From positions 37,319 to 101,318 of the forward strand of contig JAUNDT010000003.1 of the NCBI GenBank assembly GCA_030525945.1: DNA of 64,000 nucleotides. The letters run 5' to 3'. Source of the stretch: Coriobacteriaceae bacterium (lineage in GTDB: Bacteria; Actinomycetota; Coriobacteriia; Coriobacteriales; Coriobacteriaceae). This document shows positions 18,603 to 59,173 of the stretch, piece by piece (position 1 is the first letter of the stretch; the number at the start of each line of letters is the position of its first letter). Position numbers and translations under genes: made by a program. The notes beneath the pieces were generated by a model, which made no database searches, was not told the DNA's origin, and was given only the letters and a program-made list of their open reading frames with translations.

Positions 18603-18753
18603 GGGCCGGGGCCGGGCGTATACCGTCCGTCGCGAGTTCCGCACGAACAGAAGGCCCCTGCGGGGCCTTCGTCGTGAGCAGGACTGTCCGAGCAGCGGAT
18701 GGTATACGCCCGGCCCCGGCCCAGACAGGCTCGCCCTTACTCGTACTTTGCAG
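18603..18753 (+). repeat. Structured interspersed repeat, copy A
   Basis: 27-bp outer stem (18603-18629 / 18696-18722) enclosing a conserved core and an inner hairpin; related copies at 19355, 54962 and 59071. Confidence 0.9.
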
Positions 18754-18805
18754 TGCTATAGTTGGTATCAGATATGGTACGCAATAAGGTATGGAGTTGG
18801 GTGCT

Positions 18806-19093
18806 ATGACCGCTATTTACTCGTCTGCCGCGCTAAAGACCAAGCAACGCGAGGTCAAGGATGTTGCGCGCAAGGATGTCGTGCATATAACGGAGAACGG
18901 CAACGCCGCCTTTGTGCTTTTGAGTGAGGAGCTCTATGAGCGCAATCTGCGGGACGCGGCCGAGCGCGCGGCGTATGAGGAACGCGTGCGCGCGTGTATC
19001 CGCAATGGCCGGTCGGATATAGCCGAAGGCCGGGTAGTCGAGGGCATGATGGCGCTTGACGCCGCCTTGGAGGCGCGTCACCATCATGGCTAA
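18806..19093 (+). CDS. Phd/YefM-family antitoxin
   Basis: 95 aa; VVHITENGNAAFVLLSEELYE resembles the Phd fold; overlaps the toxin start by 8 nt. Confidence 0.75.
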   Translation: MTAIYSSAALKTKQREVKDVARKDVVHITENGNAAFVLLSEELYERNLRDAAERAAYEERVRACIRNGRSDIAEGRVVEGMMALDAALEARHHHG

Positions 19094-19355
19094 AATGGTG
19101 TTCACCGAGCAGTTTATCGATGACCTCGATACGATTTGGTCATCGCGCGTGTATGCCCGTGTGCGGCGTGTGCTCGCAATGATTGAGCAGTTTCCAGAAT
19201 GTGGATCTCGTTCGTTGCCGTCGTCTATCGAGCGCGAGTTTGGCAACACGGTTCGAAAATGCGCGGTCGGGCCATTTGACGTGCTGTACGACTATGACGC
19301 CAGCGAAGATGTCGCCTACGTGCTCGGCCTGGTTTCCCAACGGAGCGCCGAGTAG
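19086..19355 (+). CDS. RelE/ParE-family toxin
   Basis: 89 aa; MVFTEQFIDDL...FPECG...VGPFDVLYDY...VYVLG-type pattern; lies downstream of the antitoxin. Confidence 0.72.
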   Translation: MAKMVFTEQFIDDLDTIWSSRVYARVRRVLAMIEQFPECGSRSLPSSIEREFGNTVRKCAVGPFDVLYDYDASEDVAYVLGLVSQRSAE

Positions 19356-19507
19356 GGCCGGGGCCGGGCATATACCGTCCGTCGCGAGCTTCGCACGAGC
19401 CGAAGGCCCCAGTGGGGCCTTCGTCGTGAGCAGGACTGTCTGAGCAGCGGATGGCATACGCCAGCCCCCGCCCCGGCCCAGACAGGCCCCGTGCTCGTAC
19501 TTTGCAG
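19355..19507 (+). repeat. Structured interspersed repeat, copy B (direct repeat of A)
   Basis: Near-identical to 18603-18753, including the tail ...tcgtactttgcag. Confidence 0.9.
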
Positions 19508-19535
19508 ATGCCCATCACTGCTCTGAGGAGATGAC

Positions 19536-20123
19536 GTGCGTATGAATTACGCGGAGATCAAGCACTTCGATATCGCCAACGGCGAGGGCGTGCGCACCAC
19601 GCTGTTCGTCTCGGGGTGCCGTCGCGGGTGCATGAACTGCTTCAACGAGGTCGCATGGAACTTTGCGGCTGGCAAGCCCTTCACGCGCGAGGTTGAAGAC
19701 GAGATTATCGAGAGCCTGCGCCCCAGCTACGTGGCGGGCCTCACGTTGTTGGGCGGCGAGCCCATGGAGCCCGAGAACCAGGAGGGCCTCGTGGACTTTC
19801 TCGAGCGTGTGCGCGAGGAGTTTCCCCGCGACTCGGGCAAGACCATCTGGTGCTTCACGGGCGACACGTGGGACCGCGAGCTCGTTGCGGGAGGGCGGCA
19901 CCACACCGCGTTCACCGAGCGACTGCTCGCGTGCGTGGACGTGCTCGTGGACGGGCCGTTCGTGCAGGACCTGTACGATATCCGCCTGCGCTTCCGCGGT
20001 TCCTCAAACCAGCGCATCATCGACATGCCGGCCACGCGCGCCGCGCTTGCTGCGGGCGAAGCCCCGGCGGACGCCGTGCGCCCGTGGCAGGACAAGGCGG
20101 TCTACGCCGATCACGCAATGTAG
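19536..20123 (+). CDS. nrdG: Anaerobic ribonucleotide reductase activating enzyme
   Basis: [26 protein letters not shown] and [11 protein letters not shown]. Confidence 0.95.
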
Positions 20124-20185
20124 CGGGGCTGCGGCCCCGCCGTGGTACCATGGACCAAACTGAGGTGCTTGGAAAGCGGGCAGAG

Positions 20186-20743
20186 ATGGTTGATCAGCAA
20201 AAAGTGCGCGAGGCGGTTCGTCTTTTGCTTGAGGGCATAGGCGAGGATCCCACACGTGAGGGGCTGCTTGAGACCCCCGACCGCGTGGCTCGCATGTATA
20301 CCGAGCTCTGCGGCGGCATGGACCACGATGCCTCCGAGCATTTGGCAAAGACGTTCTCCGTGTCCGACGATGGGCTCGTTATCGAGCGCGACATCACGTT
20401 CTACTCCCTGTGTGAGCATCATATGCTGCCGTTTTACGGCAAGGTCGCCATTGGCTACCTGCCGAACGGGCGCGTTGCGGGCCTTTCAAAGCTCGCGCGC
20501 ACGGTCGAGGTGTACGCGCGCCGGCTGCAGCTGCAAGAGCAGCTCACCGCCCAGATCGCCGATGCCCTCATGGAGGAGCTCGGATGCCGCGGCGCCATCG
20601 TGTTTATTGAGGCTGAGCACATGTGCATGACCATGCGCGGCGTGCAAAAGCCCGGCACCAAGACGGCCACCCTGGCTCGTCGCGGCGCCTTTGCGGAAGA
20701 CCCGGAGCTCGAGGCCCGTTTCTTCCGCATGCTCGGGCGCTGA
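20186..20743 (+). CDS. folE: GTP cyclohydrolase I
   Basis: [30 protein letters not shown] and HMCMTMRGV. An alternative start lies at 20150. Confidence 0.95.
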
Positions 20744-20840
20744 TTGCCCGTTCGCCGAATTCGCGACGGCGCGCATGAAGGGGTCCTGGTCTAAGCGGCT
20801 CCTTGCGTGTGCGCCGCTTTGATGTGTAGGGGTATGGACC

Positions 20841-21743
20841 ATGACTGAGCGATCTGCTCATACGCTGCCGCCCATCGAGGTTGTCGATGAGGTCGGGTCG
20901 ACAAATGCCGAAATGAAGACGCGTGCCCGTGCGGGAGCGGTCCATGGCTCGGCGCTGCAGGCGCTCGCCCAAACATCCGGCCGCGGCCAGCGAGCCCATA
21001 CCTGGACATCCCCCAAAGGCGGGCTGTACCTGTCGATCCTCATTCGCCCCGAGGTGCCAAAGGAGGCGCTTCCCGCCCTGCCCGTCGCGTGCGCGCTGGG
21101 CGCGTTGGGCGCGCTGCGCGAGGTCGGCTGCGTGCGGGCGAGCCTTAAGTGGCCGAACGACATCGTGGTGGGTGATCGCAAGGTTGCCGGCATCCTCACG
21201 GAGCTCGTGTCGTCGCCTGCTGGCGTGTTCGCCGTATGCGGTATCGGCGTCAACATGATGACGCCCGCCGTTATGGCAGACGAGCGCAACTGCGCGGCGC
21301 TGCATCCCACGGGGCTCATCGACGAGCTTGCTCCCAGTGCGCAGGCACCGTCGTTGCCCAAGCTGGCGGAGGTCGTTCGCGCGGGCGTTTTGGATGCCGT
21401 GCAAGGTTGGACGGACGCCTACGGGCAGGGCGGGGTGTATGTGGAGACGGGCCGCCCCGGCTCGCGTGTTCCCGGTGCGGACCCGCAGCGTTGGATCTTC
21501 GACCCCGTTCGCGCTGGCGCCGAAGGGCCTCTGGCACCGCTTCTCACGCCGTACAACGCGTGTCTGGCGTTCGTAGGCGCCCGTGTGCGCGTTATCGCCA
21601 TTGACGGCGCGGAAAAGGCCCGAGGAACGTTTTTGGGCGTTGACGGCTACGGCCATGCGCTCGTTGCCCTGGACAACGGCTCGGTGGGAACCTACGAGGC
21701 CGCCGATGCGTCCATTCGGCCCGTCGCGCAGCTCGCCCGATAG
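20841..21743 (+). CDS. birA: Biotin-protein ligase (no N-terminal HTH)
   Basis: STNAEM, QTSGRGQR..WTSPKGGLYLS, LKWPNDI, KVAGIL and GIGVN. Confidence 0.9.
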   Translation: MTERSAHTLPPIEVVDEVGSTNAEMKTRARAGAVHGSALQALAQTSGRGQRAHTWTSPKGGLYLSILIRPEVPKEALPALPVACALGALGALREVGCVRASLKWPNDIVVGDRKVAGILTELVSSPAGVFAVCGIGVNMMTPAVMADERNCAALHPTGLIDELAPSAQAPSLPKLAEVVRAGVLDAVQGWTDAYGQGGVYVETGRPGSRVPGADPQRWIFDPVRAGAEGPLAPLLTPYNACLAFVGARVRVIAIDGAEKARGTFLGVDGYGHALVALDNGSVGTYEAADASIRPVAQLAR

Positions 21744-21965
21744 CGAGTCGCACGGGGTCGATTGCAGGCAAGCCGGTTGACGGGGTCGGTTTGTCCCGTG
21801 ACCCGTTGCAATACCAGATATGTTGAAGAGCGGTGGGGCTCGCGTTGCACCAGCTTCGCGAGCCCCACTCATAGTGAATGCCGTATGCGGTTTTGCGACC
21901 CGCACGGCACGCAGCTTGCAGCTGGCAGCCGGCAGCTTTCAGCCCGCGCGGGTCGCCACGTAGCC

Positions 21966-23360
21966 TTATGCTACGTCCACGCTCACCGTGACCTCCTGTA
22001 GCGGCACGTCGTAGAACGGGTCCTCGCGGCGGCCGAGGAAGTCGCGCGCCTGCTCGGGGAACAGCGCGTAGGACAGCACGTCCTCCTCGGAGCGGGCGTA
22101 CTGGGCGATCTCCTCGCGCAAACGGGGCATCGCGGGCTCCAGCAGATCGGCGGGACGGCAGGTGATGACCTCGTCGTCGCCGATGATCGTGCGGCGGATC
22201 TTCTCCGAGATCGTCACCGGCGGACGTCCGTACTGGCCGCGGACGTAATCCTTGATCTCGGCGGGCACGACCTTGTAGCGCTCGCCTGAGATGACATTCA
22301 TGAGCGCCTGGGAGCCCACCATCTGCGACAGCGGCGTCACGAGCGGCGGGTAGCCCAGGTCGGCGCGCACACGGGGCACCTCGGTGAGGACCTCGGCGTA
22401 CTTGTCCTCCATGTGCAGGTCCTTGAGGTTCGCCAGCAGGTTGGAGAGCATGCCGCCCGGCACCTTATACAGCAGCGCCTTGGGCTCCACGCCCATGACC
22501 TTGGGATTGAGGCCGCCCTCGGCGAGGAAGCGGTTGCGGATGGGCAGGAAGTGCGCGGCGGCCGCCTCGAGCTTCTCGATATCCAGCCTGGTCTTGTACC
22601 CGAGCGCCTCCAGGGCGATGGCCATGGACTCGGTGGCGGGCTGGCTCGTGCCTTCGGCGAAGGGGGATGAGCAGGTGTCGATGATGTCGGCGCCCGCCTC
22701 GACGGCCTTGAGCAGGGTCATCTGGGCGATGCCCGCGGTGCCGTGGGTATGCAGCTGCAGGGGCAGGTCGCAGGAGGACTTGATCTCGCTCACCAGCTCA
22801 AAAGCCACGTCGGGGGTGAGCACGCCCGCCATATCCTTGATGCAGATGGAGTCGGCGCCGGCGCGCGCCATCTCGTTGGCGAGGCTCACGAAGTAACGCA
22901 CGGTGTGCACGTCGCTCGTGGTGTAGGAAATTGCTGCTTGGACCTCGCCGCCCGCCTCCTTGGCGGCGCGGATGGAGGTGGTGAGGTTGCGGGTGTCGTT
23001 CAGCGCGTCAAAGATGCGCACGACGTCGATGCCGTTCTCAACGGACTTCTTGACGAGCGCCTCGACCACGTCGTCGGGGTAATTGCGGTAGCCGAGCAGG
23101 TTCTGACCGCGCAGCAGCATCTGCAGCTTGGTGTTCTTCACATGCGCGCGAATGGTGCGCAGGCGCTCCCACGGGTCCTCGTTGAGGTAGCGCAGGCAGC
23201 TGTCGAACGTGGCGCCGCCCCAGACCTCGAGCGACTCGAAGCCGGCGGCGTCGAGCGTTTCGAGAATCGGGAGCATGTCCTCGATGGGCATGCGGGTGGC
23301 GATTTGGCTTTGCTGGCCGTCACGCAGGACGGTCTCCATAAAGCGAACGGTGCGGGTCAT
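21966..23360 (-). CDS. oadA: Oxaloacetate decarboxylase alpha subunit (carboxyltransferase, no biotin domain)
   Basis: LRDGQQS, WGGATFD, QMLLRGQN, IKDMAG, LHTHGT, VPGGMLSN and LVTPLSQ. Confidence 0.9.
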   Translation of the reverse strand: MTRTVRFMETVLRDGQQSQIATRMPIEDMLPILETLDAAGFESLEVWGGATFDSCLRYLNEDPWERLRTIRAHVKNTKLQMLLRGQNLLGYRNYPDDVVEALVKKSVENGIDVVRIFDALNDTRNLTTSIRAAKEAGGEVQAAISYTTSDVHTVRYFVSLANEMARAGADSICIKDMAGVLTPDVAFELVSEIKSSCDLPLQLHTHGTAGIAQMTLLKAVEAGADIIDTCSSPFAEGTSQPATESMAIALEALGYKTRLDIEKLEAAAAHFLPIRNRFLAEGGLNPKVMGVEPKALLYKVPGGMLSNLLANLKDLHMEDKYAEVLTEVPRVRADLGYPPLVTPLSQMVGSQALMNVISGERYKVVPAEIKDYVRGQYGRPPVTISEKIRRTIIGDDEVITCRPADLLEPAMPRLREEIAQYARSEEDVLSYALFPEQARDFLGRREDPFYDVPLQEVTVSVDVA

Positions 23361-23363
23361 GTC

Positions 23364-23516
23364 TTACGCCTCCTTCGACGGCGGGAAGAGTCGGGCAAGA
23401 GCGAGTGAGATCAGGTAGATGACGAGCATGACGACGAAGATGCCGCCCCATCCGGTTACAAGGATCTGCAGGGCCATGTCCATGCCCTCGGGCAGTGTGG
23501 CGAGCAGCTGTTCCAT
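23364..23516 (-). CDS. Small OadG-like membrane subunit (50 aa; below the ORF-track cutoff)
   Basis: RBS gggagg; MEQLLATLPEGMDMALQILVTGWGGIFVVMLVIYLISLALARLFPPSKEA; one TM helix; sits between oadB and oadA. Confidence 0.8.
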   Translation of the reverse strand: MEQLLATLPEGMDMALQILVTGWGGIFVVMLVIYLISLALARLFPPSKEA

Positions 23517-23531
23517 GATGATCCTCCCTTC

Positions 23532-24647
23532 CTAGAGCAACAGGCCGAGCACGAGTCCGCCGGCGACGACCGATGCGATCTGACCGGCGACGTTGGCGCC
23601 TGCGGCCTGCATGAGTATGAAGTTCTGCGGGTCGGCTTCGGTGGCCATCTTCTGGACCACGCGCGAGCTCATGGGGAACGCGGAGATGCCCGCCGCGCCT
23701 ACCATGGGGTTGATCTTTTCCTTGCGGAAGAGGTTGAGCAGCTTGACGAACATCACGCCGCCCACGGAGTCCATGATGAAGCCCACGAGGCCCAGGCCCA
23801 TGACGAGCAGGGTGTCGAACTGCAGGAAGTCGTGGTACTCCATCTTGACCGAGACGCACAGGCCCAAAAGGATGGACACGAGGTTCACGAGCTCGTTTTG
23901 AGCCGACACGGACAGGCGGTCGAGCACGCCGCACTCACGCAGCAGGTTGCCGAACATGAGGAAGCCCACGAGCGGGAGCGACACGGGTGCGATCAGGCCC
24001 GCCACGATGCAGATGATGACGGGGAACAGGATCTTCGCGGTTTTGGAGACCTCGCCGGGGCGGTAGTTCATGCGGATCTGGCGCTCTTTTTTGGTGGTGC
24101 AGGCCTTGATGGCGATGGGCTGGATGATGGGCACGAGCGCCATGTAGGAGTACGCGGCGACCATGATGGCGCCCATGTATTTGGAGCCCAGGGCATTGGC
24201 GACGAAGATCGACGTGGGTCCGTCAGCCGCGGCGATGATGCCGATCGAGGCGCTGTCGGCGATGTCGAAGCCCAGCAGTGTGGCAACGATAATGACGAAG
24301 AAGATGCCGAACTGCGCCGCGGCGCCAAAGAGCAACAAAAACGGATTGGCGAGCAGCGGGCCGAAGTCGATCATGGCGCCGATGCCGATGAACAGCAAAA
24401 GAGGGAACAGCTCGGTTTCGATGCCGGCGTCGAACAGGATTTGGAACGGGCCCGCCGCGTCGCCGGTCATGAGCACGCCCGACATGGGGATGTTCACCAG
24501 GATGGTGCCCAAACCCATGGGCACGAGCAGCGTGGGCTCGTATTCCTTCTTAATGCCCAGGTACATGAGAACGCAGCCGATGAGGATCATCGCGATGCGT
24601 CCCGGCTCGGCGATGAGCGCCTGCACGCCGTCGAGTAGGATTTCCAT
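23532..24647 (-). CDS. oadB: Na+-translocating decarboxylase beta subunit
   Basis: EYEPTLLVPMG, FIGIGAMIDFGPL, IGIIAAADGPTSI, AYSYMALVP and GANVAGQI. Confidence 0.94.
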   Translation of the reverse strand: MEILLDGVQALIAEPGRIAMILIGCVLMYLGIKKEYEPTLLVPMGLGTILVNIPMSGVLMTGDAAGPFQILFDAGIETELFPLLLFIGIGAMIDFGPLLANPFLLLFGAAAQFGIFFVIIVATLLGFDIADSASIGIIAAADGPTSIFVANALGSKYMGAIMVAAYSYMALVPIIQPIAIKACTTKKERQIRMNYRPGEVSKTAKILFPVIICIVAGLIAPVSLPLVGFLMFGNLLRECGVLDRLSVSAQNELVNLVSILLGLCVSVKMEYHDFLQFDTLLVMGLGLVGFIMDSVGGVMFVKLLNLFRKEKINPMVGAAGISAFPMSSRVVQKMATEADPQNFILMQAAGANVAGQIASVVAGGLVLGLLL

Positions 24648-24665
24648 AGTGCCTCGATTCTGGAT

Positions 24666-24692
24666 AAAAACGCCGCCTTTGCCAGGCGGCGT
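24666..24692 (-). terminator. Intra-operon terminator-like hairpin between the biotin carrier gene and oadB
   Basis: On the minus strand, acgccgcct-ggcaa-aggcggcgt followed by tttt. Confidence 0.55.
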
Positions 24693-24704
24693 GAAAACGC
24701 GGGG

Positions 24705-25112
24705 TTAGGAGATGGAGAAAAGCGTGTCGCCCGGGTTCACCATGGCGCCCTTCGCCACGTCGATGGAGGCGATGACGCCGCCCTTGTCCGCAACGACCTC
24801 GTTCTCCATCTTCATTGCCTCGAGCACCATGATGGGCTGGTTGGCGGTAACCGTGTCGCCGACTTTCACGTGGATGTCGAGGATGGTGCCGGGCATCGGC
24901 GCCGTTTGCACGTGCGCGCCTGCGGGGGCTGCGGTGGGAGCAGGGGCTGCAGGCGCGGCGGGAGCCGGGGCAGGTGCGGGTGCGGGAGCCGGAGCGGGAG
25001 CCGCCACGGGCGCGGGCGCGGCGTCGGCAGGCGTCGGCTGCGGGGCGCCGACCTCCTCCATCTCTACCAAATACTGAGTCCCGTCGATCGAGATCTTGAA
25101 TTTACGCAGCAT
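24705..25112 (-). CDS. Biotin carboxyl carrier subunit of the decarboxylase (OadD-like)
   Basis: Ala/Pro linker, APMPGTI and the EAMKM biotinyl lysine motif. Confidence 0.93.
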   Translation of the reverse strand: MLRKFKISIDGTQYLVEMEEVGAPQPTPADAAPAPVAAPAPAPAPAPAPAPAAPAAPAPTAAPAGAHVQTAPMPGTILDIHVKVGDTVTANQPIMVLEAMKMENEVVADKGGVIASIDVAKGAMVNPGDTLFSIS

Positions 25113-25491
25113 GGCTGCCCTCCTCTTTCATCTTGTAGATGTTCTTGACCGTAAAAGAGCTCTTTTCGAGCGCGCCAGCGGCGAGCGCCGTGGCGATAAC
25201 CGAGACCAGGCGGTGCTCGGGATTGGCAATGAGCACGCGCTTAACGCGGAGCTCGCTTGTTGGGTGGTCGCCCGCGGCGATGGCCGAGGCGATGACGCAG
25301 GCATGCGTATGCTCATGCGGGTCGACCGGCACGTACGCGGGCACGGGCTCCCAAACGGAGCTGTCGGGCGCGGCCGGCTGGGTGCTCGGCGCGGGAGCCG
25401 CCTGGGGCTGCGCGCTTTCTCGGTGCGGCTCGGATACCTTGCGAACGCGCGCCGATGCTGCGCGGTTTTTAATCCAAGTTCGAAGTCCCAT
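25102..25491 (-). CDS. OadH-like soluble accessory subunit
   Basis: Duplicated VIASAIAAG / VIATALAAG motif with NPE; first gene of the operon. The resemblance to Enterococcus OadH is from memory. Confidence 0.55.
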   Translation of the reverse strand: MGLRTWIKNRAASARVRKVSEPHRESAQPQAAPAPSTQPAAPDSSVWEPVPAYVPVDPHEHTHACVIASAIAAGDHPTSELRVKRVLIANPEHRLVSVIATALAAGALEKSSFTVKNIYKMKEEGSHAA

Positions 25492-25682
25492 ATCGTTCCT
25501 TCCTGCGGAGCGGCTGGACACGGGCGTTAAGGCGCCGCGCATATGCCCCGCAGCTCCCTATCGTAGCGAGATTTGTAGGAATTGTGGCGAGCGCAAGGGG
25601 TAACTTCGGCGAGCGGCATTGATATGTCGAGGGGTGGTATTTCGTTTTACTCCTCGGCGTTCTTGTGCCCGAGTGATCGGGC

Positions 25683-26378
25683 ATGGTGCGCCGCGGGTAC
25701 AACAAGCCAAAGACTCGCAAGAAGGGGGATGCGTTGAGGCGCGTGCAAGCGATATGGGAAAGCCCGCGATTCCAGGTGGCGCTCGAGGGCATCGAGCGTG
25801 CGGAGCGCGACCGCGTGTATTGCCGGCATGGTTTTGGGCACCTGCTCGATGTGGCGCGCATCGCCTGGATTTTGAATCTCGAACGCGGCTGTGCGTTCGA
25901 GCGCGAGCTGGTGTATGCGGCGGCGCTACTGCACGATATCGGGCGTGGTGCGCAGTATGCCACGGGCGAGCCTCATGACGAGGCGGGCTCGCGCGTGGCG
26001 GCGGCCATTCTGGACGAGCTGCCGGCTGAGTCGCGTTTTCCCGAACGTGAGCGTGAGGCGATTCTCGCCGCCGTGCGCGGCCATCGCGGCGCCGCGTGTG
26101 GCGGCAGTGGCGATGCGCGCGGCGCTGGCGGCGACACGTGTGGCAATGACGGCGATGCACGCGGCGCTGGCGGCGACACGTGTGGCAATGACGGCTTTGC
26201 GTATGGCGGTGCTGGAGATGTGCGCGGCTGTCGGGTGAGCGAGCCAGAAGTGCCGCTTGAGCAGCTGGCGCAGCTAATTAGCGAGGCCGACGGCCTCTCA
26301 CGCCCCTGCTACGCCTGCCCGGCGCGCGAGGGGTGTTACTGGACCGATGAGCGCAAGAACCTCAAGCTCGATATATAG
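25683..26378 (+). CDS. HD-domain metal-dependent phosphohydrolase
   Basis: CRHGFGHLLDVAR, AALLHDIGR, HR and EADGLSR; C-terminal CxxCxxxxxC. The true start may be TTG at 25734. Confidence 0.82.
   Translation: MVRRGYNKPKTRKKGDALRRVQAIWESPRFQVALEGIERAERDRVYCRHGFGHLLDVARIAWILNLERGCAFERELVYAAALLHDIGRGAQYATGEPHDEAGSRVAAAILDELPAESRFPEREREAILAAVRGHRGAACGGSGDARGAGGDTCGNDGDARGAGGDTCGNDGFAYGGAGDVRGCRVSEPEVPLEQLAQLISEADGLSRPCYACPAREGCYWTDERKNLKLDI
26109..26192 (+). repeat. In-frame 42-bp tandem duplication (GDARGAGGDTCGND x2)
   Basis: Directly visible; one mismatch between the units. Confidence 0.9.
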
Positions 26379-26410
26379 ATGAGCCGTCGCTTTCGTGGAA
26401 AGGACCTGCC

Positions 26411-26893: not shown

Positions 26894-27094
26894 GCGCGTT
26901 GCCTGCGGGGCTTGCCCAGCGGTTTGGTTGCCGGGTTCATACACGGCGGCGACTCATGTGCAGCGGCGCCCTGAGATTTGCGGCTCAGCCCCGGCGATTG
27001 CGGCGCCGCGGCTCATAGCCTGGCACCCGCCGCTCCTTTGAGGCTCTATGGTCCATAGCCCGGCACCTGCCGTTCCTTTGAAGAAGGGTTAACG

Positions 27095-28159: not shown

Positions 28160-28189
28160 TTCGACTTCGCGCGCCGCACCGATACGCTT

Positions 28190-28293
28190 GCATATGCGTG
28201 GCATTGCAGGCTCGGGCATATGCGCGGCGCTGCAGGCCCGGACAGATGCGTTGCGCTGCAGGTCCGGGCATATGCCCGGTTCTGCAGGCTCGG
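28190..28293 (+). repeat. Four tandem 26-bp degenerate repeats
   Basis: Units such as gcatatgcgcggcgctgcaggcccgg start at 28190, 28216, 28242 and 28268. Confidence 0.85.
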
Positions 28294-28693: not shown

Positions 28694-28778
28694 GAAGACC
28701 GCTCGCCGAAGAATTCTTGCATACATAACATAGCGTTCTATATTTAGTACGAAGTATTCAATGGCATGGATGGTGACA

Positions 28779-50918: not shown

Positions 50919-53900
50919 ATGGCTGCTATCAAACTGGATGCCAAACAGGAGCGAATCGTCAAGACGCTCGAAGGGCCGCTGTTCGTTTCCGCCGGCGCGG
51001 GCTCGGGAAAAACGTTCACCCTCACGCAGCGCATCATGTACGCCCTGCGCCCCGGCTCCAAGCCCCGCGAGCAATGGGCCGACCCGAACGTCCCCGAGGC
51101 GTTTTTGGACAGCATCGACCAGGTGCTGGCCATCACCTTCACGCAAAAGGCCGCCGAGGAACTTAAAGAGCGCATTCGCTCCGCGCTGGTCGCCGAGGGC
51201 ATGGATGCGCAGGCCGCCAAGGTGGACAACGCGTGGATCTCGACCATCCACGGCATGTGCTCGCGCATTATCCGGGCGCATGCACTTGATTTGGGGGTCG
51301 ACCCGGCGTTCGGCGTGGCCGATTACGCCGACGATCTCAAGCGGGCGGCTGTGGAGCACGTGCTCGGCCGCGCCGTTGAGCAGGACGCGACGGGCGGCGG
51401 CGCTTACGACGAGCTGCTCCGTGCCTTCACGCTTGAGAGCGAGGGCGGCGCGGGCAGCGGGTCGAGCCTGATGTCGATCTTGTTCAAGGTGCTCTCCGCC
51501 GCTTCCGCCCAGGTGGGGGGATTGAGCGCCTTTGCGCAGGTCAAGCCCGTCCCTTCCCACGTTGCCGTTATGGAGGCGTATCGCGAGATCGCCCTTGCGC
51601 CCAGCTACGCCAATGCCGAGGCGGCGCAGGTCGCCCTCGATGCCCTCGATTCATATGTGATGTCCGGCCGTGATATGGACGCTCTGCGCGCGTGCTTTGC
51701 CTCGTGCGGCGAGCTCTCCCTGCGCGGCCGTGGCATGGGCAAGGACGAGAAGACCGCCGTCGCCGAGGTGCGCCGCGAGCGGACGCTGTTCTTCGCCGAG
51801 GCGTTCCTGGCCCAGAAGGGCGCCGCGCTCGAGCAGCTCATGGCGCTCGCCGCCGAGGTCCAGGCGGAGTACGAGGCGCTCAAGGCCGAGAAGTCCCTGC
51901 TCGACAACGATGACCTGCTCACGCGCGCCTACGATGCCCTCAAGAACAACCCGCTCGTGCGCGCCGAGTTCGCCAGCAAGTTCAAGATGGTCATGGTGGA
52001 CGAGTTCCAAGACACCGCCCAGCAGCAGGTGGAGCTCGTGCATCTGCTGTGCAGCCCAGACGGTCGCGAGCTGTGCACCGTGGGTGACGCCCAGCAGTCC
52101 ATCTATCGCTTCCGCGGGGCGGACGTCTCGGTGTTTCGCCGCAAAAAGAAGCAGGTTGAGCAGGCTGAACAGGGTGTGAGCTGCAGTCTCGACGTGAACT
52201 TCCGCAGTCATGCCGACATCCTCGCCTATGCCGACAAGATCTTCGAGGGTGGCGAGGGTAACCCGCTCGGCCGCGACTTTTTGCATCTCGATTCGTGCGG
52301 CGAGCAAACGCGCAAGGGCGCACGCGCGCTCGTGGACCCGGCGAGCGCGCGTCGCCAGGCGGTGCTGGTTGCGGGCGGAAAGACGGACGCGCGCGCCGAA
52401 CAGAAGGCCAGGGCCATTGCCGAGCGCTTCGCCGACCTGCGTGAGCGCGAGGGGTTCGAGCCCCGCGACATGGTCATCCTCATGAGGGGCTTAACGCACG
52501 CCGACGTGTACGCTCGCGCGATTCGCGCGGCCGGCATGCCGTGCGTGGTTTCCGGCGGCACCTCGGTGTTTCGTCAGGCGCCCGAGGTGGGCGCCATCGC
52601 GAGTCTCCTGGCGTTCTTGGCGAACCCCGACGATGGGCAAAAGGGCCTGATGCCGCTGCTCACCTCGCCTATGTTCGGCTTGGGAGCTACCGAGCTCTTG
52701 GCGCTTTCCACGCATATCGATCCACAGGCGGGCATCGTCGATTCGCGCACGCTCACCGGGCAGGTGTTTTTGTCCGGCGAGCTCATGGAGGAGTTCGGGC
52801 ACCTGCCGCTTTTGGAGCGCGCGCGTGAGGTGCTCGCGCGCGCGGTGGGCCGTGTGGGGCGCGACCGCGTGGCGGATATCGCGCGCGACGCGGTGCATGA
52901 GTCGGGGTGGCTGCTTCGCCTGGAGCGCAGCGGCGAGGCCCAAGATCGCGCCGTCGCCGCGAACGTGCTCAAGGCGCTCGATATTGTTGAACGTGAAAGC
53001 GCAGGTAGAGCGTACGCGCCCCGCCTTGTGGCGCGGGCGTACGAGAGCCATGTCGCCCACATCAAGGAGTCGCCCGCGGTTCTGAACGGAGCCGATGGCA
53101 ACGCCGTGCGGATCATGACGGTCCATGCGTCCAAGGGTCTGGAGTTTCCGGTGGTTGCCGTGGCGGAGTGCGACGGCATTTCGACCGACAAAGACGCGTT
53201 CCAGTCGGTCGAGCGCGGCGGGCGCGCGTTTTGGATGGCTCGCCCCAATCGCTTTGACGTTGCGGACGACGCGAAGATGCTCGGCAAAGTCGAGCTGGAC
53301 GAGGATGAGATCACGCACGAGATCCCGGATGAGGCCGCCGAGGCGTTCGCGTATATGAAACGCGAGAATCGCCTGCTCGATTACGAGGAGGCGGCGCGCC
53401 TGCTGTACGTGGCGATCACGCGTGCCCGCGAGGTCGCGATCCTGACCTTTGGCGTGAAGTATGCAACGGAGCTCGTCCCGGGGCATGGTACGTCGCTGGT
53501 GGGCGAGGTGCTGAGCCGCATCCTGCCGGTCGACGAGGGCAACGACGGCCTGCCGGATTTGGGTGCGGGCCGCCTGGCATTTGACGATTCGAAGGAGGGT
53601 GACTTCCAGCTTATCGCGCTCGACGAGCTCAACTACCCCGGCAAAAAGGGCGTGCACCGCACGTATGCGGCGGTCGATTACGCCCCGATTGAAGCATGGG
53701 GAAGCCAGGGCACGTCCGGGCTTTGTGACGCTCGGGGCGAGGGCTCGGATGGCGGCGCTGCCTTGTGCGGCGGCGTTGTTGGCGCCGGGGCTGCTGCCGG
53801 CTTCGATGCGGCTGCGGCCCTGAGCTGCGGTGCCGGCGGTGCTGATGCGGCCGCCCGCGATGAGGCGGCTGGCGGGTTTGGCTCCTCTTCGCGCGCCGCG

Positions 53901-54884
53901 GGCGGTGCCGGCGGTGCTGATGCGGCCGCCCGCGATGAGGCGGCTGGCGGGTTTGGCTCCTCTTCGCGCGCCGCGGGCGGTGCCGATGCGGCTGCCTGCG
54001 ATGGGGCCACCGACGGCTTTTGTTCCGCTGCGTGCGCCGCGGGTGTTGGGTCGGATGGCGTTCGTTCCTTCGCCCTCGTGACGCCCGCCGCCGTTGATGT
54101 CGATATTGTTCCGGGCATCCGCTCGCCTCGTGCGTCGTATAGCTACTCCTCCGTTTCCCGCGAGCTTCATGCCGAGGCGGAGGACCGTGCGGTCAATGCG
54201 GGCCCTGCGGACGGAACTGACCTTGAAGGTGCGGATGCCGTCCTGACCGACATGCCTGCCGCTTCCGTTGACGCGGCCCGTGAGGCCACCGAGGTCGACG
54301 GTGCCGAGCAAACGGGCGGGGATTCCGCAATGCAGGCGGCGGCTCCTGCGGGCGCCGCGACGGACGCCACGAATCTGGGATCGGTGGTGCATGACGCCTG
54401 CCAGTGGATGATCGAGTCGGGTATGGATGAGGTTCCCGCTGAGCGCGTCGACGCGCTGTGCCGCTATTGGGGCTGTACGCCCGAGCAACGCGTGCGCATC
54501 GATGCCGCGCTGGAGCGCTGGCGCGGCTCCGAGGTGCGTGCGGAGGCTTTGAGGTGGCCATGCGTGCAGGCGGAGGTGCCGTTCTTCAGCCAAGGGATGG
54601 ACGAGCTCGCCGAGCGCTTCGCCCCGTATGCCGAGGGCGCCATCGACCTGCTCTGCACCGACCCCGCCGACCCAACGCGTGCGCTGGTGATCGACTACAA
54701 GACCGGCGGCCATGCATCCGAGACGCCCGAGCGCCTGCAGGAAAAGCACGCCCTGCAGGCCCGCGTATACGCCGACGTCCTGCATAAGCAGGGCTACACC
54801 CGCGTGACCCTCAAGTTCGTCCGCGTCGAGCAGCCCGACGCAGACGACCCCACCCAGCCCCAAGTCGTAACCTACGAGCTCTAA
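50919..54884 (+). CDS. addA: AddA-like UvrD helicase with a C-terminal nuclease
   Basis: AGAGSGKT, STIHG, VDEFQDT, GDAQQSIYRFRGA, MTVHASKGLEF, LYVAITRA and GAIDLL...IDYKTG. Confidence 0.85.
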   Translation: MAAIKLDAKQERIVKTLEGPLFVSAGAGSGKTFTLTQRIMYALRPGSKPREQWADPNVPEAFLDSIDQVLAITFTQKAAEELKERIRSALVAEGMDAQAAKVDNAWISTIHGMCSRIIRAHALDLGVDPAFGVADYADDLKRAAVEHVLGRAVEQDATGGGAYDELLRAFTLESEGGAGSGSSLMSILFKVLSAASAQVGGLSAFAQVKPVPSHVAVMEAYREIALAPSYANAEAAQVALDALDSYVMSGRDMDALRACFASCGELSLRGRGMGKDEKTAVAEVRRERTLFFAEAFLAQKGAALEQLMALAAEVQAEYEALKAEKSLLDNDDLLTRAYDALKNNPLVRAEFASKFKMVMVDEFQDTAQQQVELVHLLCSPDGRELCTVGDAQQSIYRFRGADVSVFRRKKKQVEQAEQGVSCSLDVNFRSHADILAYADKIFEGGEGNPLGRDFLHLDSCGEQTRKGARALVDPASARRQAVLVAGGKTDARAEQKARAIAERFADLREREGFEPRDMVILMRGLTHADVYARAIRAAGMPCVVSGGTSVFRQAPEVGAIASLLAFLANPDDGQKGLMPLLTSPMFGLGATELLALSTHIDPQAGIVDSRTLTGQVFLSGELMEEFGHLPLLERAREVLARAVGRVGRDRVADIARDAVHESGWLLRLERSGEAQDRAVAANVLKALDIVERESAGRAYAPRLVARAYESHVAHIKESPAVLNGADGNAVRIMTVHASKGLEFPVVAVAECDGISTDKDAFQSVERGGRAFWMARPNRFDVADDAKMLGKVELDEDEITHEIPDEAAEAFAYMKRENRLLDYEEAARLLYVAITRAREVAILTFGVKYATELVPGHGTSLVGEVLSRILPVDEGNDGLPDLGAGRLAFDDSKEGDFQLIALDELNYPGKKGVHRTYAAVDYAPIEAWGSQGTSGLCDARGEGSDGGAALCGGVVGAGAAAGFDAAAALSCGAGGADAAARDEAAGGFGSSSRAAGGAGGADAAARDEAAGGFGSSSRAAGGADAAACDGATDGFCSAACAAGVGSDGVRSFALVTPAAVDVDIVPGIRSPRASYSYSSVSRELHAEAEDRAVNAGPADGTDLEGADAVLTDMPAASVDAAREATEVDGAEQTGGDSAMQAAAPAGAATDATNLGSVVHDACQWMIESGMDEVPAERVDALCRYWGCTPEQRVRIDAALERWRGSEVRAEALRWPCVQAEVPFFSQGMDELAERFAPYAEGAIDLLCTDPADPTRALVIDYKTGGHASETPERLQEKHALQARVYADVLHKQGYTRVTLKFVRVEQPDADDPTQPQVVTYEL
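53827..53985 (+). repeat. In-frame 75-bp tandem repeat (2 units plus a partial) in the addA linker
   Basis: GAGGADAAARDEAAGGFGSSSRAAG repeated exactly. Confidence 0.9.
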
Positions 54885-54890
54885 TCCCAA

Positions 54891-54927
54891 AATGCGTCAT
54901 TTAGGGTCAGACCCTAAATGACGCATT
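54891..54927. repeat. Perfect 18-bp-arm palindrome
   Basis: aatgcgtcatttagggtc-a-gaccctaaatgacgcatt. Confidence 0.9.
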
Positions 54928-54961
54928 ACGTTGCAGAGCGCGAATCAACATAGTCGACATA

Positions 54962-55084
54962 GCCCCGGGGGCCGGAGCGCATCGTCCCGCGCGCAGTTCC
55001 GCACGAGCCGAAAGGCACTTAATGTGCCTTTCGTGCGAGCCAGGACTGTCCGAGCACGGGATGATGCGTGCAGGCCCCCGGGGC
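54962..55084 (+). repeat. Structured interspersed repeat, copy D (divergent)
   Basis: Same core as A/B with different, still complementary stems. Confidence 0.85.
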
Positions 55085-55252
55085 GGTCAGGCCCGTGAGA
55101 CGAGCGTGAGGCCGAACACGGTGTGGACCTTCGGCGGGCAACGCGTGTTCGCCTGTTGTGTCCGGTCGGTCGGGTAGAATCGAATGCATTCAAACATGGG
55201 GCCTTACGCGCCCTTACGGAGATTCTCAGCACATCACATTGGAGACGAGCAC

Positions 55253-58200
55253 ATGGCCTTCGTTCACCTGCACAACCACACCGTCTACTCCATGTTGGAC
55301 GGCGCCACACGCATCAAGGATATGGTCAAGCGCGCCGTTGACCTGGGCATGCCCGCCGTGGCCATCACCGACCACGGTTACATGTACGGCGTTCCCGAGC
55401 TCGGCCTCGCCTGCGATGCCGTGAACCACGGCACGCCCGAGTACAAGGTCTGGAGCCACGACAAGTCCTTCCTGGAAAAGGGCCGCCGCGACGAGCTCGA
55501 GGCGCCCGATCCCGACAAAGACCCGCGCGGCTACGAGCAGCACATGAAGGACCTGGCGATGTGGGACGAGGCGGGCAACATCGACGCCCTCAAGCCGCCC
55601 CTGGTTATTAAGCCCATCTTCGGCTGCGAGGTCTACTTCACCCCCGACGACACCCTGGCGCGCGACCGCAAGCCCGAGCTCTACCACATGGTGCTCTTCG
55701 CCCAAAACGAAGAGGGCTACGTCAATCTCATGCAGACGGTCTCCGAGGCCGCCGTGCAGGGCTTTTACTACAAGCCCCGCGTGACGCTGGACAACCTGCG
55801 CCGTCATGCCAAGGGCCTCATCGCCAGCTCGGCGTGCATCGCCGGCATCATCCCCAAGTGCATCGACCGCGGCGAGATGGACAAGGCGCTCGAGTGGGCG
55901 GAGATCTTCCGCGACACGTTCGAGCCCGGCAACTTCTACATCGAGATCCAGGAGCACGGCATCACCACCGATTCCGGCATCACCGACGAGGAGCTCTCCA
56001 AGACGCTCATCGAGATCGCTGCCCAGGTGGGCGTGAAGGTCATCGCCACCAACGACTTCCACTACCTCACGCGCGAGGACGCCCCGGTTCAGGACGTGGT
56101 TATGTGCATCGGCACGGGCTCCAAGATCGACGATCCCAACCGCATCCGCATGGAGGGCTCGGAGTTCTACATGAAGACCGAGGAGGAGATGCGCGCGTTG
56201 TTCCCGTATTGCCCCGAGGCCTGCGACAACACGCTCGAGATCGCCGAGAAATGCAACGTCGAGCTCGATTGGGACAGCATCATCCTGCCGAATTACCCGC
56301 TGCTCGACCCTGGCGAGACGCATGAGAGCCAGTTCCGCCGCGAGTGCGAGGAGGGCCTGGCCAAGCGCTACGGACCGGATTGGGACGGCAAGGAGATCGG
56401 CGGCGTCGACATCCGCGAGCGCTTCGAATTCGAGTACAAGGTCATCTGCGACAAGGGCTTTGCCGCGTACTTCCTCATCGTTGCCGAGTACGTGCGCTGG
56501 GCCAAGCAAAACGGCATCGGCGTCGGCCCGGGGCGTGGCTCGGCGGCGGGCGCTCTCGTTGCGTACGCCATGGACATCACCACCTTCGACCCGCTGTCGA
56601 ACGGCCTCATGTTCGAGAGGTTCCTCTCTCCCGAACGTACCGAGATGCCCGATATCGATATGGACTTCGACGATGAGCGAAGGCTCGAGGTAATCGAGCA
56701 CGTTCGCCAGCTTTACGGTCCCGAAAAGGTCACGCACGTCATCACTTATTCCACCATTAAGGCCAAGCAGGCCATCAACGACGCCGCCCGCGTGCTCGAC
56801 TACCCCGTCTACATGGGCCAGCGCCTGTCCAAGATGGTGCCGGGCGACCCCGGCGTCAAGCTCAACCAGGTGCTCGAGAAGATCCCCGGCAAGGAGGACA
56901 TGTTCAACCCCGACCTGGTCGAGGCCTATCAAAAGGACGAGGACGCCCGCCGCATCATCGACACGGCGCTCTCCATCGAGGGCCTCACCCGCGGCGAGGG
57001 CGTGCACGCGTGCGCGGTCCTCATCTGCCGCGACGCGGTGAACGAGCACGTCCCCACCAAGCTCGACACCAAGGGCGGCGTGGAGATCACCCAGTACGAA
57101 GGCCATACCGTGGCGGACATGGGCCTGCTCAAGATGGACTTCCTGGGCCTGCGCACGCTCACGGTCATCTCCAAGGCCAAGGCCAACATCAAGAAGAACC
57201 ACGGCATCGATATCGACGTGGACGCGATTCCCTTTGATGACCCCAAGATCTTCGAGCTCATGAGTTCGGGCCGCACCGCCGGCGTGTTCCAGGTCGAGTC
57301 CGCGGGCATGACGGCTACCATCAAGAACATGAAGCCCACCGAGTACAAGCACGTGGTCGCTCTGATCGCCCTGTACCGCCCGGGCCCGCTGGGCGCCGGC
57401 ATGGTCGCGAGCTATATCAACCGCATGAACGGCAAGGAGCCGGCGGTCTCCTATGACCCGCGCCTCGACGGCATCCTGGGCGAAACCTACGGCACCATGG
57501 TCTACCAGGAGCAGGTTATGCTCATCTCAGTCGAGATGTGCGGCTTCTCCAAGGGTGAGTCGGACTCCCGTATCCGCAAGCCGGTGGCAAAGAAGAAGAT
57601 CAAGATGCTGACCGACCAGGTTTTCAAATGGTCGGACGGCGAGGACGAGACCATCTACGACCACTGGATGAACGGCGCGGAGAAGAACGGCTACAAGCGC
57701 GAGGTCGCGCAGAAGATCTGGGACGACGTTCTCGAGTTCGCGTCCTACGCGTTCAACAAGTCGCACTCCGCCGGCTACGCCATCCTGGTTATGCAGACCG
57801 CCTGGCTGAAGGCCCATTACCCCAACGAGTACATGGCGGCCGTGCTCACCTCCTACACGGGCAAGACCGACAAGATCGTGCACTACGTCTCGGCGTGCCG
57901 CCATGACGGCATCGCCGTGCTGCCGCCCGACATCAACGAGTCCGGCACCGAGTTCACGGCGACCGCCGAGGGCGTGCGCTTTGGCCTGGCGGGCATTCGC
58001 GGCGTGGGCGAGGGCGTGACCGAGGCCATCATCGCCGAGCGCGAGAAGGGCGGGCCCTTCAAGAACCTGCACGATTTCGTCGAGCGCGTGGATTCCAGCC
58101 AGGCGAACCGTCGCGTGATCGAGGCCCTCATCAAGGGCGGCGCCTTCGACTCGACTGGCTACCCGCGCCGTCAGCTCATGCACTTTGTGGACCGCGACAA

Positions 58201-59056
58201 CCCCGAGAACATCATCGATGCCGCCGCCAAGCGCCAAAAGGACCGCGCGGCCGGGCAGACCTCGCTGTTCGACGTGTTCGGCGACGTGGAGGGCTCGGGC
58301 TTTGAGGTCACCGTGCCCGAGCCGGACGGCCAGGAGTGGGACCGCCATATGAAGCTCACCTTCGAGAAGGAGGTGCTGGGCATCTACGTCTCCGACCACC
58401 CGCTGCGACCGTACGAGTACGCGCTGGCGAAGGCACGTGAGTTCACCTTGTCGCAGATCGATACCGGCTTTGAAACCATGGGACCCACCGGCAACGCCGT
58501 GAGCCAGGAGATTCCCGAAGGCAAGCCGTATTGGTGGGCCGGCATGGTCTCGAGCGTGAGCAAGCGCGTGACCAAGAACGGCGACCCCATGGGCATCGTG
58601 ACGCTGGAGGACATGGAAGGCGAGGCCACGGTCGTCATCTTCCCCAAGGCATACAAGCAGTGCGAGAGCTATCTCTACGGCGAGGTCGACCCCGAGACCG
58701 GCGCGCAGCTCTCCGACGCGTTCATTCGCGTGAAGGGCAAGCTCGAGCGTTCCGACCGAGGCGACCAGATTATCGCGCAGGAAATCGAGCCGCTCGTGCT
58801 GAACGAGGAGAGCAACCGCCCCAAGGTGTTCGAGGTCATGGTGCCGAGTTCGCGGTTCTCGCAGTCGAATATGGCGCGCCTCGCCACGGTGCTGGCCACG
58901 AATCCGGGCGGCGACCGCGTCGAGCTCTTCGTTGAGCAAGGTGACGGCCAGACCATGCGCGCCGAGATCCCCGTGCGCGTGAATGTCCGCTCGATTGCGC
59001 TGATCGCCGAGGTCAAGGGCATCGTGGGCAACAAGGGCCGAGTGACGGTGATCTAG
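55253..59056 (+). CDS. dnaE: DNA polymerase III alpha subunit
   Basis: HLHNHTVYS, TDHG, GRGSAAG, PDIDMDF, KMDFLGL and YAFNKSHS. Confidence 0.97.
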   Translation: MAFVHLHNHTVYSMLDGATRIKDMVKRAVDLGMPAVAITDHGYMYGVPELGLACDAVNHGTPEYKVWSHDKSFLEKGRRDELEAPDPDKDPRGYEQHMKDLAMWDEAGNIDALKPPLVIKPIFGCEVYFTPDDTLARDRKPELYHMVLFAQNEEGYVNLMQTVSEAAVQGFYYKPRVTLDNLRRHAKGLIASSACIAGIIPKCIDRGEMDKALEWAEIFRDTFEPGNFYIEIQEHGITTDSGITDEELSKTLIEIAAQVGVKVIATNDFHYLTREDAPVQDVVMCIGTGSKIDDPNRIRMEGSEFYMKTEEEMRALFPYCPEACDNTLEIAEKCNVELDWDSIILPNYPLLDPGETHESQFRRECEEGLAKRYGPDWDGKEIGGVDIRERFEFEYKVICDKGFAAYFLIVAEYVRWAKQNGIGVGPGRGSAAGALVAYAMDITTFDPLSNGLMFERFLSPERTEMPDIDMDFDDERRLEVIEHVRQLYGPEKVTHVITYSTIKAKQAINDAARVLDYPVYMGQRLSKMVPGDPGVKLNQVLEKIPGKEDMFNPDLVEAYQKDEDARRIIDTALSIEGLTRGEGVHACAVLICRDAVNEHVPTKLDTKGGVEITQYEGHTVADMGLLKMDFLGLRTLTVISKAKANIKKNHGIDIDVDAIPFDDPKIFELMSSGRTAGVFQVESAGMTATIKNMKPTEYKHVVALIALYRPGPLGAGMVASYINRMNGKEPAVSYDPRLDGILGETYGTMVYQEQVMLISVEMCGFSKGESDSRIRKPVAKKKIKMLTDQVFKWSDGEDETIYDHWMNGAEKNGYKREVAQKIWDDVLEFASYAFNKSHSAGYAILVMQTAWLKAHYPNEYMAAVLTSYTGKTDKIVHYVSACRHDGIAVLPPDINESGTEFTATAEGVRFGLAGIRGVGEGVTEAIIAEREKGGPFKNLHDFVERVDSSQANRRVIEALIKGGAFDSTGYPRRQLMHFVDRDNPENIIDAAAKRQKDRAAGQTSLFDVFGDVEGSGFEVTVPEPDGQEWDRHMKLTFEKEVLGIYVSDHPLRPYEYALAKAREFTLSQIDTGFETMGPTGNAVSQEIPEGKPYWWAGMVSSVSKRVTKNGDPMGIVTLEDMEGEATVVIFPKAYKQCESYLYGEVDPETGAQLSDAFIRVKGKLERSDRGDQIIAQEIEPLVLNEESNRPKVFEVMVPSSRFSQSNMARLATVLATNPGGDRVELFVEQGDGQTMRAEIPVRVNVRSIALIAEVKGIVGNKGRVTVI

Positions 59057-59070
59057 GTCGTCCGTGCGGA

Positions 59071-59173
59071 CGGCGGCATATATCATCCGCTGCTCGGACA
59101 GTCCTGCTCGCACGAAGGCCCCACTGGGGCCTTCGGCTCGTGCGGAACTCGCGACGGACGATATATGCCGCCG
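59071..59173 (-). repeat. Structured interspersed repeat, copy C (inverted relative to A/B/D)
   Basis: The reverse complement matches the core cgcgagttccgcacgagccgaaggccccagtggggccttcgtgcgagcaggactgtccgagcag. Confidence 0.9.

Follow-up and report, generated by a model that had tools for sequence, protein, structure and literature searches.

The 64,000-nucleotide stretch of a Coriobacteriaceae genome that is analyzed here (GenBank assembly GCA_030525945.1, contig JAUNDT010000003.1, denoted C23, positions 37,319 to 101,318; hereinafter, the window) contains four copies of a long hairpin in which an almost invariant center is enclosed by stems that differ from copy to copy, and the question that this locus raises is whether such an element acts as RNA, as DNA or as a mobile unit. 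These copies are members of an undescribed family of intergenic DNA palindromes, which numbers about 25-35 per Collinsella genome. With moderate confidence, we interpret this element as a new variant of extragenic palindromic repeat DNA that resembles the repetitive extragenic palindromes (REPs) and bacterial interspersed mosaic elements (BIMEs), with a conserved core that would be recognized by a protein.

Anatomy of the element

A covariance model recovers all four copies where the first-pass annotation, made from the letters of the window alone, had placed them. The spans 18613-18712 (+), 19365-19464 (+), 54972-55074 (+) and 59073-59171 (-) score 93-111 bits on these strands compared to 24-35 bits on the opposite strand, so that the center of the element is strongly asymmetric although the whole unit is a palindrome. 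The 16-mer CAGGACTGTCCGAGCA, with at most 2 mismatches, is found 4 times in the window against an expectation of 0.04, a count that is reached in none of 100 shuffles. The copies align across ~140 nucleotides (nt), and each folds into one near-perfect hairpin of 110-130 nt; the minimum free energy of the RNA ranges from -76 to -101 kcal/mol, and the z-score relative to dinucleotide shuffles from -5.4 to -11.5:

18599-18726, + strand: copy A, full hairpin (core and inner stem at 18613-18712; -101.2 kcal/mol, z -11.5; 103.6 bits)
19355-19479, + strand: copy B, full hairpin (-75.7 kcal/mol, z -5.4; 96.7 bits)
54962-55084, + strand: copy C, full hairpin, 'GGAGCGCATCG' subfamily with a TTAAT apical loop (-93.7 kcal/mol, z -10.3; 93 bits)
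59066-59178, - strand: copy D, full hairpin (-82.5 kcal/mol, z -8.5; 111.1 bits, the top score in the genome)

The element consists of three nested layers, namely, an outer stem, an asymmetric core and a small apical hairpin, which make up a unit of 110-150 bp. The outer stem is locus-specific and near-perfect, with a length of 25-40 bp (median 32-34 ungapped bp) and 93-95% Watson-Crick pairs. The core, of ~70 bases, conforms to the consensus 5'-(C)GCGAG TTCCGCACG ... CAGGACTG YYYGAGC-3' and contains a lopsided internal loop, 5' RAG versus 3' (C)UGUYYGAR, which is adjoined by an invariant short helix with bulged bases (TCCGCACG versus CG.G.C.GGA). The loop of the apical hairpin is CAGTGG or CTTAATG, and the apical junction comes in three discrete versions (AGCC/GTGCGAG, CAAA/GTCTTGCG and AACA/GTCGTGAG). 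Between copies of one genome, sequence identity peaks in the core and decays gradually outward to the background level 35-45 nt away. The earlier observation that the stems vary, with their pairing kept, around a conserved fold and conserved unpaired core letters is supported. The stems and apical hairpins quoted for the window copies in the first-pass annotation are correct in sequence, and the outer stems are real and paired, but just the inner 10-12 bp of the outer stems had been recognized, and the labels of copies C and D had been exchanged: the atatatcgtccg stem belongs to the copy at 59071, and the gcatcgtcccg stem to the copy at 54962.

Variants of this architecture include a short class in which the inner stem is missing (TAGATTCCGCACG...CAGGACCTGACCGAGC). 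In addition, two deletion derivatives on contig C20 (C20:152220-152255 and C20:189673-189709) retain the arms and the inner stem, with part of the apical core gone. An interpretation of the internal loop as K-turn-like (tandem G.A pairs in CGCGAG/YGAGCG) was dropped because the respective letters are not kept in copies of the C. aerofaciens type.

Spread of the family and comparison with databases

Iterated nhmmer searches of the whole source assembly (1.88 Mb in 23 contigs) identified 37 loci (about 33-37 across searches), of which ~30 are full length. Using model R1 (99 positions, 31 pairs), the element was detected in 23 of the 24 sampled Collinsella species; among the species represented at 95% completeness or more, it is present in 130 of 131, G015 being the only one that lacks it. 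The copy number across the genus extends from 0 in G015 and ~4 in G014 up to 30 or more. Diverged homologs are found in four other genera of Coriobacteriales, where the frame CGCGAGTTCCGCAG-[other apical hairpin]-CGAGGACTGTCYGAGC lies between complementary arms, and two metagenome-assembled genomes (MAGs) of Eggerthellaceae also match the model. In an Eggerthellaceae MAG (locus L096, 7261-7522), two copies of a related element are arranged in tandem with a 124-nt period; the interpretation of this two-copy tandem as an array was rejected. Contigs from a bin assigned to Methanobrevibacter smithii (loci L048 and L129) carry typical Collinsella copies, probably due to contamination of the bin by Collinsella, and single matches in Amycolatopsis and Labilithrix are probably chance occurrences.

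The element had initially not been recognized as a member of any known family, and the database comparisons bear this out. When the window was searched against Rfam 15, tRNAs only were detected at the gathering threshold, and at E values up to 10, only generic models of long-hairpin microRNAs, far under threshold, were added. The only earlier structured motif that is named for the genus, Collinsella-1 (RF01700), has six known members that differ from the element in sequence and structure; its published alignment is unrelated, its model has no match in the window, and this candidate was accordingly rejected. In the literature, we found no description of REPs, miniature transposable elements with inverted repeats (MITEs) or invertons of Collinsella or Coriobacteriia that matches the element. 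With regard to a viral or plasmid origin, IMG/VR (2.9 million viral contigs) yielded only 4 pattern matches and PLSDB a single 900-kb Collinsella replicon. The possibility that the stems are guide- or spacer-like sequences was rejected as well, given that they have no second match in their own genome and none in 50,697 phage records.

Concerted change of the arms and inversion of the core

The stems differ among copies, and the differences preserve pairing. Among the 30 copies of the source genome, double changes are found in 19 of the 31 pairs, and in a larger alignment of 70 copies from many genomes, 96.4% of the cells are paired compared to 72.8% after shuffling, with 483 double-changed cells against 148 in the shuffled alignments, a value that is reached in none of 500 shuffles. 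Double changes affect all 15 outer-stem pairs and 5 of the 7 apical pairs; because the core helix is invariant, covariation neither supports nor contradicts it. Among 4,921 stem positions, 4590 are Watson-Crick pairs, 87 are G.T, 53 are A.C and 191 are other combinations, and the two strands of the element fold equally well, with energies that are not different (p = 0.12). The outer stems are unique: they have no second match in the genome, and none is common to non-orthologous loci in three genomes.

The mode of this change is apparent from 44 orthologous pairs in three species. In these pairs, 177 stem positions changed on both arms and are still paired, compared to ~11 such compensated changes that would be expected if the arms were independent; 53 changes are confined to one arm, and 15 changes affect both arms without pairing. 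The preponderance of paired over one-sided changes (177 against 53) indicates that the two arms change together, often in blocks; in one orthologous pair, 20 of the 38 base pairs differ, with just one one-sided change. The compensatory changes that had been noticed among the window copies are real and strongly manifest in the larger alignment, but for the most part, they do not represent stepwise covariation of the RNA type. The covariation of the element is real but not RNA-style, and the evidence favors DNA over RNA.

All copies are intergenic, and many start 10-50 nt past a stop codon, with virtually no preference for either orientation. Where the neighboring genes are co-directional, 14 copies are in sense and 13 in antisense orientation. 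On three near-complete chromosomes with 26-28 copies each, the strand counts are 13:13, 14:14 and 15:13, and the two orientations are interspersed, without a two-domain pattern; an orientation bias with respect to the replichores was therefore rejected. Furthermore, the core is found inverted in place. At one locus, the 70-bp core of G009 is the exact reverse complement of that in G010 and G003, although the flanks and the 38-bp arms of the three are 98-100% identical. At a second locus, the same flanks and arms enclose cores of opposite orientation in G021 and G093, and at that locus, G148 carries the G021 core inside other arms. Orientation differs at ~1 of 21 loci that are common to three species, so that flips occur rarely and do not amount to fast phase variation; over sufficient time, such rare flips would lead to the 50:50 orientation.

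Random orientation combined with in-place inversion of the core speaks against a strand-dependent role as a catalytic RNA or as a signal for mRNA processing, both of which had been suggested in the first-pass annotation; a ribozyme, or an RNA signal that requires one orientation, is unlikely. The element could also be thought to represent independently transcribed structured noncoding RNAs or a self-cleaving ribozyme, given the conservation of the loop letters and the co-variation of the helices, and random orientation relative to the neighbors would be normal for stand-alone RNA genes. Such RNAs are nevertheless extremely improbable: no ribozyme or RNA family is matched even with the relaxed Rfam cutoff, the locus-specific flanks imply that there is no conserved promoter, and Watson-Crick stems of 30-40 bp without G.U pairs, in-place inversion and the persistence of hybrids with unpaired arms (see below) are not the behavior of RNA genes.

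An intrinsic terminator was rejected as well. As had been pointed out originally, a U-tract is absent, so these are not ordinary terminators: no T-tract follows any of the window copies (0 of 4), the orientation relative to transcription is 14:13, and separate canonical T-tract terminators adjoin some copies, such that the element is not needed as a terminator at these sites. More generally, the copies could be cis-acting RNA hairpins at gene ends that block 3'-to-5' exonucleases, provide an RNase III site or cause termination independent of a U-tract, as REP, ERIC and Correia elements do elsewhere. This possibility, which we regard as unlikely, draws on the position shortly past stop codons, on the extreme RNA folds (z down to -11.5), on the conservation of the loci across species and on the equal folding of both orientations, which would let a pure stable-stem role survive inversion. 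A stable-stem role, however, leaves the order-wide conservation of an asymmetric core unexplained, and the lack of an orientation preference, the near absence of G.U pairs from the stems and the location of some copies directly after canonical T-tract terminators or in promoter regions also count against it. A stable RNA hairpin at gene ends is possible as a by-product or an added function of the element.

The inversions are relevant for another alternative, namely, that the copies are small invertible switches, in which the arms are the inverted repeats and the core is a direction-dependent signal (for example, a terminator that works in one direction, a weak promoter or an RNA motif bound by a protein), so that a flip would alter the expression of a neighboring gene. 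The two loci at which the 70-bp core is exactly inverted while arms and flanks are near-identical, the strong asymmetry of the core in the bit scores and the invariable head-to-head arrangement of close inverted pairs are all compatible with such switches. We consider them distinctly unlikely, however, given that flips are rare among the three species whereas fast phase variation would give random orientations, that the arms differ at each locus, which would leave a site-specific invertase without a common site outside the core, and that the TTAAT loop, a possible -10 box, gives way to CAGTGG in the majority of copies in the source genome. The same contrast emerges from the comparison with invertons, the invertible promoters of gut bacteria. 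Similar to invertons, the element includes a short segment between inverted repeats that occurs in both orientations at one locus, with exact inversion between species at two loci. Invertons, however, flip rapidly and have short recombinase-site repeats that are common to a regulon, in contrast to the locus-specific 25-40 bp arms and rare flips of the element; no linked invertase was noted, although no invertase search was made.

Inverted pairs of the element that are less than 300 bp apart are always arranged head-to-head, with the 5' sides toward the spacer, which consists of unrelated AT-rich intergenic DNA. In the source genome, such pairs are located at C2:3942/4137, C3:8092/8307, C8:2293/2667, C8:87219/87351 and C12:13143/13300, and there are three or four of them per genome in the C. 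aerofaciens group (G148, G021 and G093). The regions C3:~5300-10500 and C12:~10400-15500 are paralogous, alike in gene order and in the head-to-head pair that they contain, due to either a segmental duplication or an assembly split.

Histories of the modules, the window loci and the nature of the element

Apart from inversion, the parts of the element differ in their histories. At six or more orthologous loci, including those that follow nrdD or precede a tRNA or a ribosome-binding site, flanks that are 91-100% identical enclose different hairpin interiors. About 30% of the orthologous pairs show joint replacement of both arms and the apex. Often, a middle block of the stem differs on both arms, with the outermost and innermost segments retained. 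Hybrid copies, with arms that come from different alleles and no longer pair, were identified at L018, L053 and L081 and also as 3 of the 75 copies in three genomes. The junction of the L018 hybrid lies in the apical loop, and at L005, a remnant of the right arm of the other allele adjoins the present hairpin. Apical cassettes are common to different loci (25 variants in 75 copies), suggesting either that copies exchange them or that only a limited set is permitted. No direct repeat was seen at allele boundaries where the flanks are 99-100% identical. The loci themselves are stable: all 23 loci of G148 are occupied at the orthologous place in G021 and G093, within the C. aerofaciens group, and size differences between orthologous loci are due to other repeats, not to gains of the element. 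Two metagenome scans for conspecific strains with empty sites found nothing.

The genes next to the window copies are identified by Pfam as those encoding NrdD, a ParE toxin paired with a Phd-like antitoxin, a helicase-nuclease similar to AddA, and DnaE, which upholds the placement of the copies shortly past the stop codons of nrdD, the toxin gene, the addA-like gene and dnaE in the first-pass annotation. Copy A starts ~25 nt past the nrdD stop codon (18572-18574). Copy B begins on the stop codon of the toxin gene, contains a 5-nt insertion and mismatches in its right arm, and is followed on the 3' side by the nrdG start at 19536 or 19542. Copy C is found in the spacer from the stop of the addA-like gene at 54884 to the dnaE start at 55184, and copy D is located ~10 nt past the dnaE stop codon (59054-59056). 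Copies A and B are direct duplicates that bracket the Phd/ParE cassette (18791-19355), which comprises two open reading frames:

18791-19093, + strand: Phd-like antitoxin (Pfam PF02604)
19086-19355, + strand: ParE-family toxin (Pfam PF05016)

In a pairwise alignment, A and B also have a common right-hand tail, ...CCCAGACAGGC..CTCGTACTTTGCAG. This layout would be expected if a circular or donor segment with one copy of the element had recombined with a resident copy. The ParE-family toxin of the cassette is not found in 120 other Collinsella species and is thus unique among 121 genomes.

The spacer between nrdD and nrdG (18575-19535 in the window; loci L182-L210, L227 and L231) is a hot spot of small inserts across Collinsella. 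It is empty in G306 and G144, and in other genomes, it holds a different palindrome family (CGGCGGGAAAATGGGGACAGTCCCTATTTTCCCGCC), an Abi_2-like gene, or a module of ~750 nt beside a minus-oriented copy of the element; the best relatives of NrdG are at most 90% identical and have other inserts in the spacer. In relatives (L136, L137, L142, L145 and L147), the addA-dnaE spacer contains a different long hairpin, with the conserved outer stem TTGCGGTGGAATA...TATTCCACCGCAA and an interior that varies between species, so that swapping of the interior inside a kept stem is not limited to the element. Downstream of dnaE, some species of the C. aerofaciens group (L162, L168 and L173-L175) carry other MITE-like palindromic inserts (AAATGATTTTTCTGGGACGGGGATT... 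and GCTAATTTGGGACGGGGCTATTTTAGC...). Thus, the loci of the window copies are not occupied by the element in the nearest available relatives, which implies that copies are gained and lost over long times.

The first-pass annotation had also raised the co-occurrence of an HUH/Y1 transposase. The genome does encode one such protein, which resembles the REP-associated tyrosine transposases (RAYTs; C2:99269-100015, HUH motif HVHLIL, PF01797), but the gene is flanked by a different palindrome. This second palindromic family, REP2, is 39 bp long, has about 41 copies genome-wide and the sequence AAAATGCGTCATTTAGGGTC/AGACCCTAAATGACGCATT (also given as AAAATGCGTCATTTAGGGTC/AGACCCTAAATGACGCATTTT), and occurs at C2:99226-99266 and C2:100077-100117, that is, on both sides of the RAYT-like gene in the classic REP-RAYT arrangement. 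One REP2 copy lies in the window:

54889-54927, no strand assigned: REP2 palindrome, on the 5' side of copy C

REP2 is located on the 5' side of the element in all 7 members of the subfamily of copy C, forming a BIME-like mosaic. Among the sampled Collinsella genomes, only G015 lacks a RAYT homolog, and it is also the sole one without the element.

These loci and the Y1 gene bear on the possibility that the element is a folded single-strand recombination or transposition site, similar to attC or to IS200/IS605 and RAYT substrates, that is mobilized, or captures cassettes, via an HUH or tyrosine enzyme. The presence of a Y1 gene, the toxin-antitoxin cassette between two direct copies with a common tail, the start of copy B on a stop codon and the lineage-specific small modules in the nrdD-nrdG spacer would fit such a site, as would the conserved structure, free stem sequence and conserved unpaired bases that the element shares with attC. 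It is nonetheless very unlikely in our estimation. Copies do not form arrays and lack the replichore orientation bias that is expected if insertion targets the template of the lagging strand; REP2, instead of the element, is found on either side of the RAYT gene; the conserved part is at the tip of the hairpin rather than at its base; the loci are stable across species; and viral contigs yielded only the few matches mentioned above. The differences from integron attC sites, which are likewise found at the 3' ends of open reading frames and of which the one bracketed toxin-antitoxin cassette is reminiscent, are of the same kind: attC sites have R and L boxes at the stem base and a variable tip and form one-directional arrays next to intI, whereas the element consists of dispersed singletons in both orientations with a conserved tip and a stem base that is not conserved (no R''/L''-L'/R' boxes; no search for intI was made). 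In contrast to PATEs, which derive from IS200/IS605 and show a replication orientation bias, the three near-complete chromosomes have the element at 50:50.

The closest resemblance is to REP/BIME and to the REPIN-RAYT systems of Escherichia coli and Pseudomonas, in agreement with the original view of the copies as a REP-like dispersed hairpin family. In common with these repeats, the element has a high copy number, is strictly intergenic and often located past stop codons, occurs in both orientations, and forms a mosaic with a second repeat (REP2) in a genome that encodes a RAYT-like Y1 protein. REPs, however, are 20-40 nt long, with a conserved stem and a 5' tetranucleotide tag (GTAG or CGTC), and flank their own RAYT gene, whereas the element is 110-150 bp long, has a conserved tip with a stem that differs at each locus, lacks the short conserved stem and the 5' tag, and does not flank RAYT. 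ERIC/IRU and Correia (CREE/NEMIS) elements are similar in that they are imperfect intergenic palindromes of ~100-150 bp, found in both orientations and co-transcribed as long hairpins, but they have family-wide terminal inverted repeats, with TA target duplication and MITE behavior in the case of Correia. The ends of the element, in contrast, differ at each locus, and it shows neither the conserved terminal inverted repeats nor the target-site duplication of MITEs.

As a REP/BIME-like repeat, the element would act as DNA: the palindrome may form an extruded hairpin or cruciform or adopt its fold in single-stranded DNA, and a putative trans-acting protein would read the unpaired letters of the core. 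The arms, being inverted repeats, would template or convert each other, such that complementarity stays while the sequence drifts or is swapped in blocks; recombination between the arms would now and then invert the core in place, and recombination via the conserved core between alleles or copies would shuffle the modules. A co-transcribed copy, in either orientation, would yield a very stable RNA hairpin just past the stop codon. Two mechanisms are established for DNA palindromes, namely, arm-to-arm templating (quasi-palindrome correction by template switching) and inverted-repeat recombination. Between them, these would explain why the changes look compensatory and the stems are perfectly Watson-Crick paired, as well as the flips and the hybrids. 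The order-wide conservation of the core would be explained most economically by a protein that recognizes the core in its extruded form. The anatomy and distribution of the copies, the joint change of their arms, the inversions, the hybrids and the stable positions are observations, whereas the protein partner, the origin of new copies and any benefit to the host are inferred.

Several observations weigh against this interpretation. The combination of conserved loop letters with variable helices is the classic signature of functional RNA, and the order-wide conservation of the core requires selection that the proposed model does not specify. No clean filled-versus-empty pair was found in close relatives, and neither defined ends nor a target duplication was seen. 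The conservation of all 23 compared loci would fit a stable, possibly useful feature as well as selfish DNA. Finally, the element was found within 1.5 kb of RAYT at 0 of 10 RAYT loci in 9 genomes, and two of the other genera have homologs of the element without a RAYT match, so that the link to RAYT is only circumstantial.

A more novel interpretation, which we deem rather unlikely, is that the ~25-35 loci are fixed 'sockets', that is, locus-specific perfect palindromes that hold an exchangeable and invertible 70-bp core cassette. A dedicated putative protein would recognize the extruded core and drive exchange, inversion and arm templating, and the orientation of the core or the apical cassette would set a direction-dependent effect on the neighboring gene.

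The layout of the element is the reverse of that in classical REPs and MITEs: the tip is conserved and lopsided, and the stems are free in sequence but perfectly paired. The family provides a clean natural example of concerted change of arms, in-place inversion of the center and recombinants with mismatched arms, which are usually inferred just indirectly. A practical warning follows, namely, that strong covariation in a repeat family can stem from the mechanics of DNA palindromes, without the need for a functional RNA. Collinsella is a common genus of the human gut, and almost every species carries at 25-35 intergenic sites an element that is unnamed in annotation and RNA databases. If a protein partner or a direction-dependent effect on genes exists, the element would provide a new way to approach gene regulation or the stability of the genome in Coriobacteriia.

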